Shown piece by piece: positions 2,681 through 16,981 of a DNA stretch of 20,975 bases (position 1 is its first letter; every line of letters begins with the position of its first letter). This stretch comes from a virus (taxonomy: Duplodnaviria > Heunggongvirae > Uroviricota > Caudoviricetes). The translations under genes and the position numbers were made by a program. The notes below the pieces were generated by a model. It was given only the letters and a program-made list of their open reading frames with translations. It made no database searches and had not been told where the DNA came from. Location of the stretch: the IMG/VR virus record IMGVR_UViG_2728369187_000006, positions 1 through 20,975 of that record; one strand, given 5' to 3'.

Positions 2681-3180
2681 GACTCGATAATTTTCAGAAA
2701 CGGGTTAGTGGCTTTCTTCTTCCCCGCCAGGCCAATCAGACGCTGGCGGCTGCTGGGGTCGAGTCCGAGCATTGCCCCCGTACTGCTCATCTCGGACTCC
2801 TGTTCTTTTTTGGCGGTCAGCTCCGGATTTTTGACCATGCCGCCCATTGCACCGGTGATGGTGTTGCCCTGTCTGGCAATATTTTTCACGGCACGTCGCC
2901 AGAACTCATAGGCCACGCACCACCGCTCAAGCACTGCGAGGTCAGTCACGCACAGCAGGCCCTGACCGCAGAGTTCTTTGGTTGTCAGTTGCCACATGAT
3001 CGTGGCGAGAGGAAGCTCTTCTTCAGCGAACCACTCCGGTGGCTCAACACCTTTGATGGGCGTAAAAACAGGTTCATCTTTGTTCAGGGCTCGCTTGCCG
3101 GGGTTTCCGGCCAGCGCCTTGCGCGCCGTTGGCTTAGGGCGACGCCCGGAACGCCCCACCGTTCCAGCCATATGCGGCAC
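2677..3180 (-). CDS. Terminase small subunit (P27-like family)
   Basis: 167-aa ORF immediately upstream of the large terminase. Basic N-terminus ([22 protein letters not shown]) resembles P27-family small terminases from memory. Confidence 0.8.
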
Positions 3181-13750: not shown

Positions 13751-14089
13751 CTATTTCCCTGAATTTACGACGAAACTGTTCGAGCGGACTGAAGCACTCA
13801 TGCTCATAGCCTTCGCGGAGGTAGATAACCCGTTGTGTTTCCGGTTCCCAACGAATGACTCTGACGGGCACTCCGTAGTGATCTTTGAACCAGCGGTTAA
13901 CTTGTCGCAAAGGACTGTCTCCTTCTGCCGGTTGAAATCACCCACAGCCCACTCTGCAAAGCTGTGGGTTACAATTTCCCTGTCACCTGGTACATTTACT
14001 GCATAGCAATACTCCACCTTCGCTTTTCCACCCGGTACAGGAAGCGCAATCAGTTGCGAGCGACGGTAGTGTGTTGTTAAACTGTTCAT
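13751..14089 (-). CDS. Hypothetical protein, apparently frame-disrupted, or two small overlapping genes
   Basis: The 112-aa ORF is protein-like for its first ~55 aa, then turns Ser-rich and low-complexity. Another frame over 13746..13931 reads as a convincing protein ([59 protein letters not shown]), with AAGGAG 8 nt before an in-frame TTG. An 8-bp hairpin (13941..13968) sits at the junction. Confidence 0.35.
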
Positions 14090-14649
14090 GCGTTAGTTTC
14101 TCCACAGTCACGACACGCCACGGCGCCCGGAGCTGCACACTCGCGGGCGTCATTACTTTCTGAAATGCAAAAGATTTTGTAGACCAGTGCTGCATGCTCC
14201 TGCAGCTTCGAAATTGAGAGATATAGCTCGTCGTTAATTGCTGTTTTCTCATGCGGTTCCACTACACCGTCTTCGATTGCTGAACGAATCTGTTTTGAAT
14301 AACTGCCGATCTGTTCAATGACTTCCAGCAGACGCTGGTTAATATCGGCGTTGTCCACATCCTCGACGTCAGGAAGAGACACAAATACGCCATTTGCAGA
14401 CTGCGCCACAGCATCAGCAATGAAGTGAGTGCCACCAGCACGCTGTAAAACCATTGCCCATCCCAGCGGAAAAATCTGATCGCCATCTGCACGAAGGCGG
14501 TTGAATAAAGCGTTCTCTGTTACATCCAGCCAGTCAGCCGCTTCAGCGTAACCACCCGGCAACGCCGCGATAGTTTTTCTGACAGCTTTCACGTACCACT
14601 CAGGCTGTTTTTCTATTTTCCAGTGATGCTTACCCACGATTAGCCTCAT
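14086..14649 (-). CDS. CII-like / YdaT-like phage regulatory protein
   Basis: 187-aa ORF directly downstream of the cro-like gene, as in cI-cro-cII and racR-ydaS-ydaT arrangements. Family assignment is from memory and position only. Confidence 0.6.
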
Positions 14650-14680
14650 CGTTCTGTGGTTAAAAATTGAAAGTGTTCTG

Positions 14681-14881
14681 CTAATCTTTCGGATAGATAT
14701 CCGGTCTTAAGTCAGATTTCGTAATTGCACCTGACGTGCATTGCTCAAGTTTTTTAGCCAGCACAAAACTGGCTTTTTTATAGCCATTGAAAACCAGCCG
14801 TAAGTAGCCAGGTGTTGAGCCAACTTTTCCGGCCAACTCGCCCTGCTGTTCTTTGGTTAAAGAGTCCCAATACGCTTTCAT
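14681..14881 (-). CDS. cro: Cro-like HTH repressor
   Basis: Small HTH protein (QGELAGKVGSTPGYLRLVFNGYKKAS) divergent from cI. Start at ATG 14881 is preferred because GGAGG lies 8 nt upstream; the ORF-track start at 14905 lacks an RBS. Confidence 0.75.
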   Translation of the reverse strand: MKAYWDSLTKEQQGELAGKVGSTPGYLRLVFNGYKKASFVLAKKLEQCTSGAITKSDLRPDIYPKD

Positions 14882-14971
14882 ACAATATGTACCTCCGGTG
14901 TACATATTACATGATTAAAATGAACCTTCAAGATACTTGTACCTTAACGGTACAAGGGTTTTAATTTCGTT
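14882..14971. promoter_or_regulatory. Immunity control region (OR-like): two palindromic operators plus divergent pR-like and pRM-like promoters
   Basis: Palindromes ATGTACCTCCGGTGTACAT (14887..14905) and CTTGTACCTTAACGGTACAAG (14936..14956). Minus-strand TTGAAG-N16-TAATAT upstream of cro; plus-strand TTGTAC-N17-TTAATT ending 5 nt before the cI ATG (near-leaderless). Confidence 0.65.
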
Positions 14972-15646
14972 ATGAAAACAATCCATGACATCCGGCGGTC
15001 TAACGCCAGAAAACTGAGAGATGGTGTTGGCGGGAATTCTTCCTTTGCCACTATGATTGATCGCGAGCCAACCCAGACCAGCAGGTTTATGGGAGATGGT
15101 GCTACTAAAAATATCGGTGACAGCATGGCACGACACATCGAAAAATGTTTCGACCTGCCTGTCGGATGGCTCGATCAAGAACACCAGACAACCAACATCA
15201 CAAAAAAACCTGATGTTTCAATCACTAATAAACAAATCACATTAGTCCCTGTCATATCATGGGTACAGGCCGGAGCATGGAAAGAAGTTGGATATTCTGA
15301 GGTTGATTTGAGCACAGCAGAAACGTATCCCTGCCCTGTACCCTGTGGGGAAATGACTTATATCTTGCGGGTGATAGGTGATTCAATGATTGATGAGTAC
15401 CGCCCGGGAGACATGATTTTTGTCGATCCTGAAGTACCTGCCTGCCACGGTGACGACGTTATTGCATTGATGCACGATACAGGTGAAACCACCTTCAAAA
15501 GGTTGATAGAAGATGGGACACAGCGTTATCTCAAAGCGTTAAACCCAAACTGGCCTGAGCCTTACATTAAGATCAACGGTAATTGCTCTATAATTGGAAC
15601 TGTGATTTTCTCAGGAAAACCAAGAAGATACAAAATCAAAGCCTAA
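14972..15646 (+). CDS. cI: cI-like repressor (N-terminal DNA-binding domain plus C-terminal S24 LexA-like autopeptidase)
   Basis: 224 aa. C-terminal S24 features: Ala-Gly cleavage-site candidate (WVQAGAWK), Ser nucleophile context (VIGDSM), downstream Lys. Divergent from the cro-like gene across the operator region. Confidence 0.85.
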   Translation: MKTIHDIRRSNARKLRDGVGGNSSFATMIDREPTQTSRFMGDGATKNIGDSMARHIEKCFDLPVGWLDQEHQTTNITKKPDVSITNKQITLVPVISWVQAGAWKEVGYSEVDLSTAETYPCPVPCGEMTYILRVIGDSMIDEYRPGDMIFVDPEVPACHGDDVIALMHDTGETTFKRLIEDGTQRYLKALNPNWPEPYIKINGNCSIIGTVIFSGKPRRYKIKA

Positions 15647-15658
15647 TCAATGTTTATG

Positions 15659-15682
15659 AACCTGCTTCGGCAGGTTTTTTTA
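15659..15682 (+). terminator. Rho-independent terminator after cI
   Basis: ACCTGC-TTCG-GCAGGT stem followed by a run of 6-7 T. Confidence 0.75.
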
Positions 15683-15685
15683 TAC

Positions 15686-15720
15686 TTGACAATGTACCCT
15701 TGAGATACATAATGTACCTA
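15686..15720 (+). promoter_or_regulatory. pL-like early-left promoter with overlapping operator repeats (OL-like)
   Basis: TTGACA (15686..15691), 16-17 nt spacer, CATAAT/ATAATG (15708..15714). AATGTACC repeats at 15691..15698 and 15711..15718 share the TGTACC half-site seen in the OR region. Confidence 0.65.
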
Positions 15721-15817
15721 AGAGAAACAACAAACAGGCAGGACGCCCACGAAGTAGCCGCCGGTGGCGTATGAATGACCGGATGATTCGTTAAATACTA
15801 TGTGTAAGAGAGCGCAA

Positions 15818-16021
15818 ATGAACCGTTATTTCACATGCTCGTTTTGTGGCGCAAACGAGCTGCAGGCAAAAAAAATCATCGCCAAAGGCGGAAAAGATGA
15901 AGTTGCTATCTGCTCTGAGTGCGTAGTCTTGTGTGTCGGGGCATTAATCAATATCAGCACAACTATTCAGTTCACACCAAATGAGAATGCGCCTTTAGAT
16001 GCGCGGAAATCTGGAGGTTAA
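15818..16021 (+). CDS. Small protein with ClpX-type C4 zinc-binding-domain-like motif
   Basis: MNRYFTCSFCGANELQAKKIIAKGGKDEVAICSECVVLCVGAL aligns by eye with the E. coli ClpX N-terminal ZBD ([31 protein letters not shown]), including all four Cys. AAGAGAG RBS upstream of ATG 15818. First gene downstream of the pL-like promoter. Confidence 0.65.
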   Translation: MNRYFTCSFCGANELQAKKIIAKGGKDEVAICSECVVLCVGALINISTTIQFTPNENAPLDARKSGG

Positions 16022-16029
16022 AGAACAAA

Positions 16030-16305
16030 ATGAAAGTCCAGATTTTAAACAATAGTGGTGAAGTCGTTTGGTCATACGACATAGCCGCTCCTGTAGATCA
16101 GAGCGGCGATAGCTGGACCAATGGGAAACATCAGATTATGGCTGGAGTTGTGTTCTCTTTACGCCGTGCTTTAGAACAGGCTGAAGTCTTTCCATCAGAC
16201 CCTGAATGGAAATGGCCTTTTTCTATTTGTCCAAATTCGGAGAGTACATTTCAGAAAATTGGTCAGAAAGTCGCACTCGAAGAGCATCAGCCAACTGTTT
16301 CCTGA
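16030..16305 (+). CDS. Hypothetical protein (early-left operon)
   Basis: 91-aa ORF with a strong GGAGG RBS 8 nt before the ATG. Its 3' end overlaps a convergent minus-strand ORF, so the true C-terminus is uncertain. Confidence 0.55.
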   Translation: MKVQILNNSGEVVWSYDIAAPVDQSGDSWTNGKHQIMAGVVFSLRRALEQAEVFPSDPEWKWPFSICPNSESTFQKIGQKVALEEHQPTVS

Positions 16306-16468
16306 TTTTTTCAGGTAACTCGTCGGCATCGCAGAAACAACAACGCTCGATCATGTTGAAAGCCGATTCGTAGAACTGTTTTTGCTGAGTGTCGCTGAGA
16401 CAGGAAAAGAGCGACGTTACGATGATTTTATTAATTGCATTATCAAGTTCTTTTTCATCAAAAGTCAT
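16223..16468 (-). CDS. Hypothetical small protein, convergent and overlapping the previous gene
   Basis: 81-aa ORF with AAGGAAAA RBS upstream of its ATG and a protein-like sequence including a CCFC motif. Conflicts over 83 nt with 16030..16305; one of the two may be mis-called. Confidence 0.4.
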   Translation of the reverse strand: MTFDEKELDNAINKIIVTSLFSCLSDTQQKQFYESAFNMIERCCFCDADELPEKIRKQLADALRVRLSDQFSEMYSPNLDK

Positions 16469-16724
16469 TTGATTTTCCTTTTATGTATACGGGCTTAAAA
16501 GGATACCACCGAGCCTGAAGTGGTGAAAAGACAGGCACATAACAGCTAAGTATTTTCAACCAGAGAGAATCCTTAGCGTTGTGGTGAATGCGGCTCAGCG
16601 CACGCGGGTTAAGGTTGAGGCTGACAGTCGACCTTCTGTGGATACCCACCCGCCTGGTGTGCAACCTTCGCCAGGCACCGGGAGGCACCCGGCACCACAA
16701 CTTTATGCTGTGTGTAGTCTTGGC

Positions 16725-16770
16725 GGTACCAGCTTGTACCCTTGCTTCCGGCTGGTACCGTCCTTTTTAC
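16725..16770 (+). terminator. Candidate intrinsic terminator / structured element in early-left non-coding region
   Basis: 9-bp stem GGTACCAGC / GCTGGTACC (16725..16733 and 16751..16759) with a 17-nt loop, followed by GTCCTTTTTAC. The loop and stem carry CTTGTACC and GGTACC, the same half-site as the operators. Confidence 0.4.
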
Positions 16771-16981
16771 AAAACAGAGAAGAGCATCACCGGACGACGG
16801 GCTCATAACCCAATCCATCCGGGCGGCTGCCACCGCAGGTGTTCTTCTCTGTTTTGTGGAGAAACTAACCGCCCCTACGGGGGCATTTATGGAAATGTAA
16901 TTGACTCAATAATCGCCGGACGGTGAGGGCTTCCTTTTACCCGAATTCAACGCGGTGCAGTGCATATACGTGGAGAACAAA

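Follow-up and report, generated by a model that had tools for sequence, protein, structure and literature searches.

The stretch of DNA analysed here (the window) is 20,975 bp long and carries, on its + strand at 14972..15646, a gene for a cI-type repressor (YmfK/CohE) with a LexA-like S24 autopeptidase domain, identical in 224 of 224 residues to YmfK of the E. coli K-12 element e14 and in 223 of 224 to CI of SfV. Residues 93-212 of the predicted protein match Pfam Peptidase_S24 (PF00717; 92.8 bits compared to a cut-off of 23.3) and the structural matches of the C-terminal domain are lambda CI, UmuD and LexA. No N-terminal DNA-binding domain or helix-turn-helix was detected by Pfam; the N-terminal 75 residues gave a weak match to the phage SPC32H repressor 5d50 (E 5e-4), and this domain is also weakly homologous to 7nkv, the DNA-binding domain of a phage repressor. 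Divergently oriented to cI, on the - strand at 14681..14881, lies a cro gene of the YmfT/CroE type (66 amino acids, 66/66 identical to SfV Cro and named ymfT in RefSeq), the product of which has weak Pfam matches to YdaS_toxin and HTH_3, both under the curated cut-offs. Following cI, an intrinsic terminator (15658..15683, + strand; 8-bp stem and T-run) was found by a terminator scan and is annotated in the SfV and Ayreon records.

The OR region of the window differs from that of K-12 e14 at 1 of 90 bases, and in both e14 (ymfK/cohE - ymfT/croE) and SfV (cI-cro) the OL region and pL are as in the window except for spacer bases. The prophage itself is a CPS-53/SfV-like element, with yfdN, yfdR and yfdT as neighbours, rather than e14, and from pL to the hairpin described below its early-left genes are not those of SfV or e14. 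In the GenBank record of SfV, the interval equal to 14887-14955 of the window is already labelled "putative operator region". The immunity module was present in 1324 of 5426 complete E. coli genomes (about a quarter), K-12 included, and the region is a known kind of E. coli prophage switch, of the e14/SfV type, and so a largely ordinary finding. In K-12, the SOS-inducible division inhibitor YmfM is thought to be controlled by the YmfK repressor.

A first-pass annotation of this DNA had pointed to two palindromes in OR and to repeats in OL as one operator family. Both palindromes are present (ATGTAC-N7-GTACAT at 14887-14905 and CTTGTACC-N5-GGTACAAG at 14936-14956), as are both repeats (AATGTACC at 15691-15698 and 15711-15718, next to and inside the pL-like promoter), and the consensus proposed for OR and OL was borne out and could be refined, as all four reduce to one 17-bp dyad, TGTACC-N5-GGTACA, with a weaker site, OR2, which that annotation had overlooked, added to them. 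OR1 (TGTACCTCCGGTGTACA, 14888..14904) has no mismatches to the dyad and overlaps the last base of the pR -10, the predicted pR start and the cro Shine-Dalgarno sequence, and OR3 (TGTACCTTAACGGTACA, 14938..14954), again with no mismatches, overlaps the -35 and spacer of pRM. The candidate weak operator OR2 (TGAACCTTCAAGATACT, 14921..14937) overlaps the pR -35, with its centre at about -43 from the cI start, from where it may have an activating role; it abuts OR3, 17 bp centre to centre, which is an odd geometry for two dimers. The OL sites lie at the far end of cI, 805 bp from OR, with OLa (TGTACCCTTGAGATACA, 15693..15709) in the spacer and -10 of pL, and the weaker OLb (TGTACCTAAGAGAAACA, 15713..15729) beginning at the last base of the pL -10 and extending over the predicted start, in the same geometry to this -10 as OR1 has to that of pR.

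The putative pR (14904..14931, - strand) reads towards cro and consists of a -35 TTGAAG (14931..14926), a 16-nt spacer and a -10 TAATAT (14909..14904), while the putative pRM (14937..14965, + strand) has a -35 TTGTAC (14937-42), a 17-nt spacer and a -10 TTTAAT (14960-65). The hexamers of both are weak (4/6 and 4/6 for pR, 3/6 and 5/6 for pRM) and the assignments lean on conservation and on one published class of transcription start site. Across genera, pR keeps the TTG of its -35 and the last T of its -10, and pRM keeps the TAAT of its -10; pR is missing from the list returned by a promoter scan because only 8 of its 12 positions match. There is no Shine-Dalgarno sequence ahead of the cI ATG, and the cI mRNA is probably leaderless, starting at or near A14972. 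In K-12, dRNA-seq classed the ymfK mRNA as leaderless (PMC4681348), which fits the placement of pRM. The pL-like promoter (15686..15713, + strand; TTGACA at 15686-91, a 16-nt spacer and CATAAT at 15708-13) is strong and sigma-70-like, matching the consensus at 11 of 12 positions, and a pL promoter is annotated in the record of phage Ayreon. Its CTTGACAATGTACC...CATAATGTACC is kept in the 17 homologous loci introduced below, with single-base changes in L019 (CAGTGTACC) and L024 (TAATGTACT), and the junction of -10 and operator is alike at the two lytic promoters (TAATAT followed by GTAC at pR, CATAAT followed by GTAC at pL). The OR3 palindrome together with GGTTTTAATT was flagged by the scan as a + strand terminator, which was rejected because other genera have not kept the T-run.

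The OR and OL sites greatly exceed chance expectation. A search for TGTACC palindromes across all 20,975 bp of the window, as TGTAC-N7-RTACA with up to one mismatch, returned the four OR and OL sites and no others. A position matrix trained on 16 non-E. coli loci was used to score 20,955 positions of the window, and its five best matches were OR1, OLa, OR3, OR2 and OLb (26.5, 25.8, 22.6, 11.4 and 10.4 bits respectively), with OR2 and OLb at a level which a shuffled window can reach (the maximum score in 200 shuffled windows averaged 7.0 bits, and the highest was 19.5). An additional OR site 20 bp upstream of OR1, as an analogue of OLa, was considered and rejected (4 of 10 positions match), as were two half-site-like copies of TGTACC within cI (15262-67 and 15337-42; 8.3 bits), which are coding sequence and where no locus scored above 9 bits.

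For comparison we used 17 homologous loci from other Enterobacterales, with repressors 73-100% identical, and aligned 18 OR sequences, drawn from about 15 genera. The columns without variation are those of the half-sites, of the Shine-Dalgarno sequence of cro, of the pRM -10 and of TTG in the pR -35. In OR1, TGTACCTCC and TACA are invariant and the 3 central bases vary; OR2 has the left half TGAACC in all 18, and a better TGAACCnnCAAGGTACT is found in most other genera; in OR3, all 18 have CTTGTACC and the right-half core (G, TAC), the neighbouring G and the last A are almost invariant, and the 5 nt in the middle vary freely, taking at least 14 different forms among the 18 sequences. The same pattern of conserved half-sites around 5 free central nucleotides was seen for OLa in the 17 loci. 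The left half of OLb is conserved in 16 of the 17 (L024 has TGTACT). Its right half is degenerate; some genera have lost it and others have a better one (L020, L024). The positions of the five sites relative to the cI ATG are fixed at -84, -51, -34, +721 and +741, and beyond OR and OL none of the 17 loci has a further site above 9 bits within 2.5 kb. In more distant relatives, whose repressors are 27-37% identical, the palindromes are different ones, such as TTAGC-N5-GCTAA in two copies, and SfII, mEp460, phiNP, L034 and L035 likewise have palindromes other than the TGTACC dyad, the half-sites being kept with this repressor family and different sites accompanying unrelated repressors.

Several dyads of one consensus occupy the cI-cro intergenic region over the putative divergent promoters, as expected of a lambdoid OR, and the same consensus recurs on the other side of cI within the TTGACA-16-CATAAT of pL, as expected of a lambdoid OL. 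One operator family is supported by how the sites lie relative to the promoters, by their internal consistency and by the phylogenetic footprint across genera, and, as judged from sequence, there is strong support for the dyads being the genuine, conserved operators of the cI-like repressor, which would bind them with some hierarchy among the sites. It is very improbable that they are instead bound by some other factor (a host protein, or Cro alone) or are simply conserved promoter elements. Part of the conservation in OR does have other causes, since OR1 shares sequence with the cro ribosome-binding site and the -35 of pRM comes from OR3, and such a reading could also draw on the failure of Pfam to see a helix-turn-helix in the N-terminal domain of CI and on the indirect nature of the case for CI binding (no footprint, EMSA or ChIP experiments with this repressor were found in the accessible literature). 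However, the dyad recurs at OL in another promoter context, its conservation is that of a dyad (halves fixed, centre free) and not that of promoter hexamers, the sites are confined to this repressor family while divergent repressors have different palindromes, the layout mirrors OR and OL of lambda, and the N-terminal domain of CI does have weak homology to the DNA-binding domains of 5d50 and 7nkv.

We consider it very probable that 14882-15729 is a lambdoid immunity switch of the e14/SfV type and that the hairpin lies outside this system. In such a switch the LexA-like CI, and presumably also Cro (YmfT), would act as dimers on TGTACC-N5-GGTACA dyads. OLa and OLb would cover the spacer, -10 and start of the strong pL driving the early-left operon, so that CI bound at OR1/OR2 and OLa/OLb would silence the lytic promoters, while OR3 may serve in autoregulation by CI or in the shut-off of cI by Cro. 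Repression would be lifted by RecA-stimulated autocleavage through the S24 domain, and looping, if there is any, would be between OR and OL.

As in lambda, cI and cro are divergent, three OR dyads lie over pR and pRM, the operators are repeated at pL beyond cI, OR2 is about -43 from the start of a leaderless cI and the repressor has an S24 autocleavage domain. Unlike lambda, the operator sequence (TGTACC-N5-GGTACA) is unrelated, the spacings in OR are 33 and 17 bp compared to 24 and 23, there are two OL sites rather than three, and OL and OR are 0.8 kb apart rather than 2.4 kb. Homologues of N, cII and cIII have not been reported for SfV-type phages (PMC3851460); YmfL matches the CII family of phage 186. 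The e14/SfV immunity group thus gains a clean and testable consensus, TGTACC-N5-GGTACA, for three sites in OR and two in OL, which is useful for annotation and for reporter design, but no new principle emerges, since lambda has a similar layout and a GenBank record already pointed to the OR interval.

At 16722..16768 on the + strand there is a terminator hairpin, with a 13-bp stem (16722-34 pairing with 16750-62), a 15-nt loop (TGTACCCTTGCTTCC) and a T-run at 16764-68. Its RNA folds at -26.3 kcal/mol (z -3.76) and none of 200 shuffled sequences folded as well. A stable stem-loop followed by CTTTTT, in the orientation of pL, is the arrangement of an intrinsic terminator, and termination here is predicted from these features; the terminator scan missed the hairpin because its 15-nt loop exceeds the limit of 8 set by the tool. 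In the alignment to the STnc100 model the hairpin takes the place of the 3' hairpin, and it would be the terminator stem-loop with which an STnc100-like structured RNA ends (16548..16771, + strand; Rfam RF02076, 43.4 bits, E 1e-7) within the early-left transcription unit, an RNA which is not part of the operator system. The match is full-length (model positions 1-206 of 206) but its 43.4 bits are a near miss of the gathering score of 47, for which reason we call the RNA STnc100-like and not a member of the family. Rfam at gathering thresholds gave no match in the window, and the STnc100-like match, together with a DicF-like one, appeared only in a permissive scan. Homologous STnc100 matches were found in SfV, SfII, e14 and Qin. 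The alignment to the STnc100 (RF02076)/PasD prophage sRNAs shares the CACCGGGAGGCACCCGGCACCA core and the 3' terminator hairpin, in which the window has a 22-nt insertion compared to the model; the STnc100/PasD family has been described as prophage-borne (bioRxiv 10.64898/2026.05.13.724894).

The hairpin is also spanned by an ORF of 112 amino acids beginning with ATG (16588..16926), where SfII_35 and RefSeq annotate a CDS or pseudogene, and were this a real protein-coding gene the structure would be incidental. We regard this as very unlikely, because PGAP repeatedly calls the ORF a frameshifted hypothetical protein, a mosaic breakpoint at approximately 16720 cuts it in many phages, and the variants of the loop include length changes which are not multiples of 3, while the full-length match to a structured RNA (E 1e-7), the T-run after the hairpin and the thermodynamically exceptional fold also count against it.

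The first-pass annotation had also proposed that operator elements recurring in the hairpin might form a distal copy acting in repressor looping or on the early-left transcript. The elements are indeed there (CTTGTACC at 16733-16740, GGTACC at 16725-30 and 16754-59), but not beyond what chance would give, as CTTGTACC is expected 0.55 times per window and the 6 copies of GGTACC in the window (2.45 expected) were reached in 5 of 100 shuffles; that there are two in the hairpin follows from the hexamer being self-complementary and lying within the stem. Every 17-mer in the hairpin has more than 3 mismatches to the operator, the matrix scores it at -17 at best, its GTAC motifs start 10, 19 and 29 nt apart compared to 11 in the operator family, and it holds a single half-site-like hexamer, TGTACC, in the loop and with no dyad partner.

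Nor does the hairpin travel with the repressor. The repressor of L034 is 22% identical and has TTGCGCAA-type operators, and next to it lies a base-for-base identical copy of the hairpin; in L035, a variant with one base changed but with TTGTACC intact lies next to a 32%-identical repressor of a third immunity type. The hairpin is present in SfII and mEp460 too. Conversely, with a repressor identical to that of the window, K-12 e14 has a hairpin loop (TTTTTTCC...) without TGTAC, and L008 has TTATACC in place of TTGTACC, its A replacing a G which is invariant in the aligned half-sites of OR1, OR3 and OLa. No hairpin was found within 2.5 kb in 15 of the 17 repressor-family carriers using a strict search pattern, by which diverged copies may be missed. 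The hairpin segment was present in 2697 of the 5426 E. coli genomes, compared to 1324 for the immunity module, with 3426 copies of the hairpin in E. coli genomes overall, and among other prophages its stem and T-run are conserved and its loop is hypervariable. A functional distal half-site here, stabilising an OR/OL loop or modulating the early-left transcript, is hardly credible given the lack of a dyad at the family spacing, of co-occurrence with the cognate repressor and of half-site conservation, even though its 8-mer CTTGTACC is the left arm of OR3 on the same strand 1.8 kb away, TGTACC is over-represented in the window (18 compared to 6 expected) and a half-site could in principle add weakly to looping. 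The hairpin is not an operator and its operator-like TGTACC and GGTACC are a coincidence; it belongs to a separately exchanged mosaic module, independent of immunity type. Thus, of the original proposal, the operator family at OR and OL stands and the third site falls, and the main value of the analysis is this negative one, the third operator and its looping being removed and the hairpin becoming an independent RNA module.

The hairpin also aligns weakly to DicF (RF00039) of Qin, which occupies a similar place, in the early-left operon downstream of the repressor gene, and shares with the window TTGGCGGTAyCAGyTTkTAC, a long terminator stem and a T-run. With the DicF model the window scored 19.4 bits and the e14 copy 28.5, under the gathering score of 48, compared to 76.7 for the genuine dicF of K-12, and K-12 dicF had no significant alignment to the window in plain blastn, so that homology to DicF is a lead only. 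As the loop differs from that of DicF, targeting of ftsZ should not be assumed. A speculative possibility, to which we give a low probability, is that the hairpin belongs to a so far unrecognised DicF-like family of prophage sRNAs or 3' ends, with a conserved stem GGCGGTACC...GGTACCGCC and T-run and a hypervariable loop (TTGTACCC, TTTTTTCC, TTCCATCC and others) which might retarget it to different host mRNAs; many lambdoid prophages would carry it in their early-left operon, at the end of the STnc100-like RNA, and would exchange it independently of immunity type. In Qin, the STnc100-like match adjoins dicF.

All of the strings on which the first-pass annotation based its proposed operator family were present at their places in the window, with ATGTAC-N7-GTACAT at 14887-14905 and CTTGTACC-N5-GGTACAAG at 14936-14956 in OR, between cro and cI, and two copies of AATGTACC (15691-98 and 15711-18) in OL, beyond cI. 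Both OR palindromes and both OL repeats proved to be one 17-bp dyad, TGTAC-N7-RTACA (fuller form TGTACC-N5-GGTACA), and a search of the whole 20975-bp window for TGTAC-N7-RTACA with up to one mismatch found it only at 14888-14904 (OR1), 14938-14954 (OR3), 15693-15709 (OLa) and 15713-15729 (OLb). A position matrix trained on 16 non-E. coli loci, and hence not circular for the window, gave as its top five in the whole window OR1 (26.5 bits), OLa (25.8), OR3 (22.6), 14921-14937 (11.4) and OLb (10.4), compared to shuffled windows, whose maxima averaged 7.0 and did not exceed 19.5. The bare TGTACC hexamer occurs 18 times in the window (7 copies in the immunity region, 1 in the hairpin discussed below and 10 elsewhere), against roughly six expected, and 0 of 100 shuffles reach 18; the 10 copies elsewhere also compare with an expectation of about six.

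The system is of the e14/SfV immunity type, which is already known. Positions 14600-16900 are 98-99.7% identical to SfV and to many E. coli prophage immunity regions, in which the RefSeq gene names are ymfK, ymfT and ymfL, and the prophage context is CPS-53/SfV-like, with yfdN, yfdR and yfdT as neighbours. The cI repressor (14972..15646, + strand; 224 aa) is identical at every residue to YmfK/CohE of E. coli K-12 e14 and at 223 of 224 to SfV CI, and has a Peptidase_S24 domain (92.8 bits) and a C-terminal domain matching lambda CI, UmuD and LexA structures, while the divergent cro (YmfT; 14681..14881) encodes a product identical to SfV Cro. In the SfV GenBank entry the counterpart of 14887-14955 already carries the label “putative operator region”; no experimental operator mapping was found in the literature searched. 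The explicit consensus, the OR2 candidate described below and the OL sites, which may or may not already be in print, are all of an ordinary, textbook type.

The near-consensus pL (TTGACA 15686-91, 16-nt spacer, CATAAT 15708-13), which is annotated as a promoter in the phage Ayreon record, follows the cI terminator (15658-15683); OLa occupies its spacer and extends into the -10, and OLb runs from the last base of the -10 across the start region. OR1 likewise begins with the final -10 base of a predicted pR on the - strand (TTGAAG 14931..14926, 16-nt spacer, TAATAT 14909..14904), and also contains the cro Shine-Dalgarno sequence. Placing pRM on the + strand (TTGTAC 14937-42, 17-nt spacer, TTTAAT 14960-65) would start transcription close to the first base of the cI ATG (14972), before which there is no Shine-Dalgarno sequence, and OR3 would hence overlap the pRM -35 and spacer. 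K-12 ymfK is among five leaderless E. coli mRNAs identified by differential RNA-seq (PMC4681348), and the K-12 OR differs from that of the window by one base only; lambda cI offers a leaderless parallel to both genes. Apart from the leaderless class of ymfK, we infer these placements from the sequence.

Scanning one genome per species gave 17 usable loci with repressors 73-100% identical (Pseudocitrobacter, Klebsiella, Atlantibacter, Leclercia, Phytobacter, Enterobacter, Pantoea, Trabulsiella, Kluyvera, Limnobaculum, Rahnella, Edwardsiella and others), and in all 17 there were dyads at positions -84 and -34 relative to the cI ATG and at about +721 beyond it. Invariant in the 18-sequence OR alignment were TGTACCTCC and TACA in OR1, the AAG giving the TTG of the pR -35, CTTGTACC and the right-half core (G, TAC) of OR3, the ATG and some of the pRM -10. 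The 5-nt centres of OR3 and OLa took many different forms across loci. Compared with the window, SfV and Ayreon, which have the same proteins, show site changes in spacer bases or at the tolerated G/A of RTACA only. Unrelated repressors (22-32% identical: SfII, mEp460, phiNP, L034 and L035, the last two being loci with other immunity types) are accompanied by entirely different palindromes (TTGCGCAA / TCACGCAA or ACTAAG...CTTAGT), and distant relatives in Comamonas have two TTAGC-N5-GCTAA dyads in place of the TGTACC dyad, which thus goes with the DNA-binding domain of the YmfK-type repressor. The Comamonas terrae dyads (L027 2300-2500), upstream of a 27%-identical repressor relative, are of similar build (5-bp arms, 5-nt centre) with another specificity.

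The fourth matrix match, TGAACCTTCAAGATACT at 14921-14937, was absent from the first-pass list and overlaps the pR -35. The left half of this match, TGAACC, is unchanged in 18/18 aligned sequences from about 15 genera, most of which have a better site, TGAACCnnCAAGGTACT, at this position, and the match is probably a weak OR2, a putative binding site. Counting it makes the OR layout three-site and lambda-like, with site centres 33 and 17 bp apart. The start of the leaderless cI lies ~43 bp downstream of the centre of this site, which thereby holds the same place relative to pRM as lambda OR2, and lambda uses that geometry to activate pRM.

The first-pass interpretation is only partly supported, as the operator family common to OR and OL is real but the further, distal operator suggested in a hairpin at 16722-16768 is not. 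In this hairpin a 13-bp stem (16722-34 with 16750-62) closes a 15-nt loop, TGTACCCTTGCTTCC, and is followed by CTTTTT (fold energy -26.3 kcal/mol, z -3.76). It does contain the 8-mer CTTGTACC (16733-40), which has a chance expectation of 0.55 per window and has its TGTACC portion within the loop, and the GGTACC copies at 16725-30 and 16754-59 are the two stem arms, which pair automatically because the hexamer is self-complementary. No 17-mer within 3 mismatches of the operator was found in the hairpin, where the best matrix score was -17. In E. coli 23CRST012 (L034) a base-for-base identical hairpin stands beside a repressor of SfII type, in a locus with no TGTAC dyad, a one-base variant keeping TTGTACC adjoins a third immunity type (L035), and SfII and mEp460 also have the hairpin. 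With repressors identical to that of the window, K-12 e14 has the same stem with loop TTTTTTCCTTAGTCCTTT and another E. coli (L008) has loop TTATACC, which replaces a G that all aligned half-sites of OR1, OR3 and OLa share; the loops of Pseudocitrobacter and phiNP are different again. A strict pattern search found no such hairpin within 2.5 kb in 15/17 loci of the YmfK-type repressor family, and none of the 17 had an operator-grade site outside OR and OL within 2.5 kb. Among 5426 complete E. coli genomes the hairpin segment occurs in 2697 (3426 places) and the OR-cI-OL module in 1324 (1437 places), and in many phages a mosaic junction at ~16720 parts the hairpin from the STnc100-like body preceding it. 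From this dissociation of hairpin and repressor we conclude that the hairpin is an independently exchanged RNA module and that its likeness to an operator half-site is coincidental.

In the switch that we propose, CI dimers on OR1 and OR2 would block pR and those on OLa and OLb would block pL, and OR3, within pRM, would serve CI negative autoregulation or let Cro shut off cI. SOS-activated RecA would trigger S24 autocleavage and derepression, consistent with the SOS-inducible, LexA-independent division inhibitor downstream of pR in e14 (bioRxiv 10.1101/2020.11.19.390815). Looping, if any, would join OR to OL, whose separation of 805 bp is the same in all loci, and the hairpin would probably be a terminator, or processed 3' end, of the early-left unit RNA. 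What we infer here is the binding of CI, the hierarchy among its sites, and any activation, looping or termination.

Downstream of cro, a YmfL-like gene (14086-14649, -) matches Phage_CP76 (phage 186 CII family, 51 bits), in contrast to the absence of cII stated for SfV-type phages. A secondary immunity system of P1/P7 type, made up of a C4 antisense RNA and isrK, lies to the right of ymfL in SfV, Ayreon, mEp460 and a Pseudocitrobacter prophage (1442-1630 in both L001, SfV, and L002, Ayreon; also in L004 and L011); neither RNA matched in the window at gathering thresholds. The first gene past pL (15800-16021, +) encodes a 73-aa ClpX-type C4 zinc-finger protein. Between pL and the STnc100-like RNA, two convergent ORFs without Pfam matches (16030-16305, +, and 16223-16468, -) overlap by ~80 bp, and the second would be antisense to the early-left transcript.

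A permissive Rfam run aligned STnc100 end-to-end with 16548-16771 (+; 43.4 bits, E 1e-7, gathering 47), the hairpin being the terminal stem-loop of the model, and gave a weak DicF match on the hairpin itself (19.4 bits; gathering score 48). STnc100 and the related PasD have been described as prophage-borne sRNAs (bioRxiv 10.64898/2026.05.13.724894). The annotation of 16548-16771 as coding (a “frameshifted hypothetical protein” in RefSeq, a 112-aa CDS in SfII) probably reflects an RNA element mistaken for a gene. Hairpins of this family, in which the stem GGCGGTACC...GGTACCGCC and T-run are kept and the loop is hypervariable, are found in many lambdoid prophages whatever the immunity type (K-12 e14, L006 5191-5241, -; also L003, L004, L005, L008, L011 and L020), and their likeness to DicF is graded, the e14 copy scoring 28.5 bits. 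In K-12 Qin (L007) an STnc100-like match (2884-3142, 34.4 bits) runs from the dicF end up to dicB, and since it abuts dicF, DicF-like hairpins and STnc100-like RNAs are neighbours in two prophage types, in opposite order.
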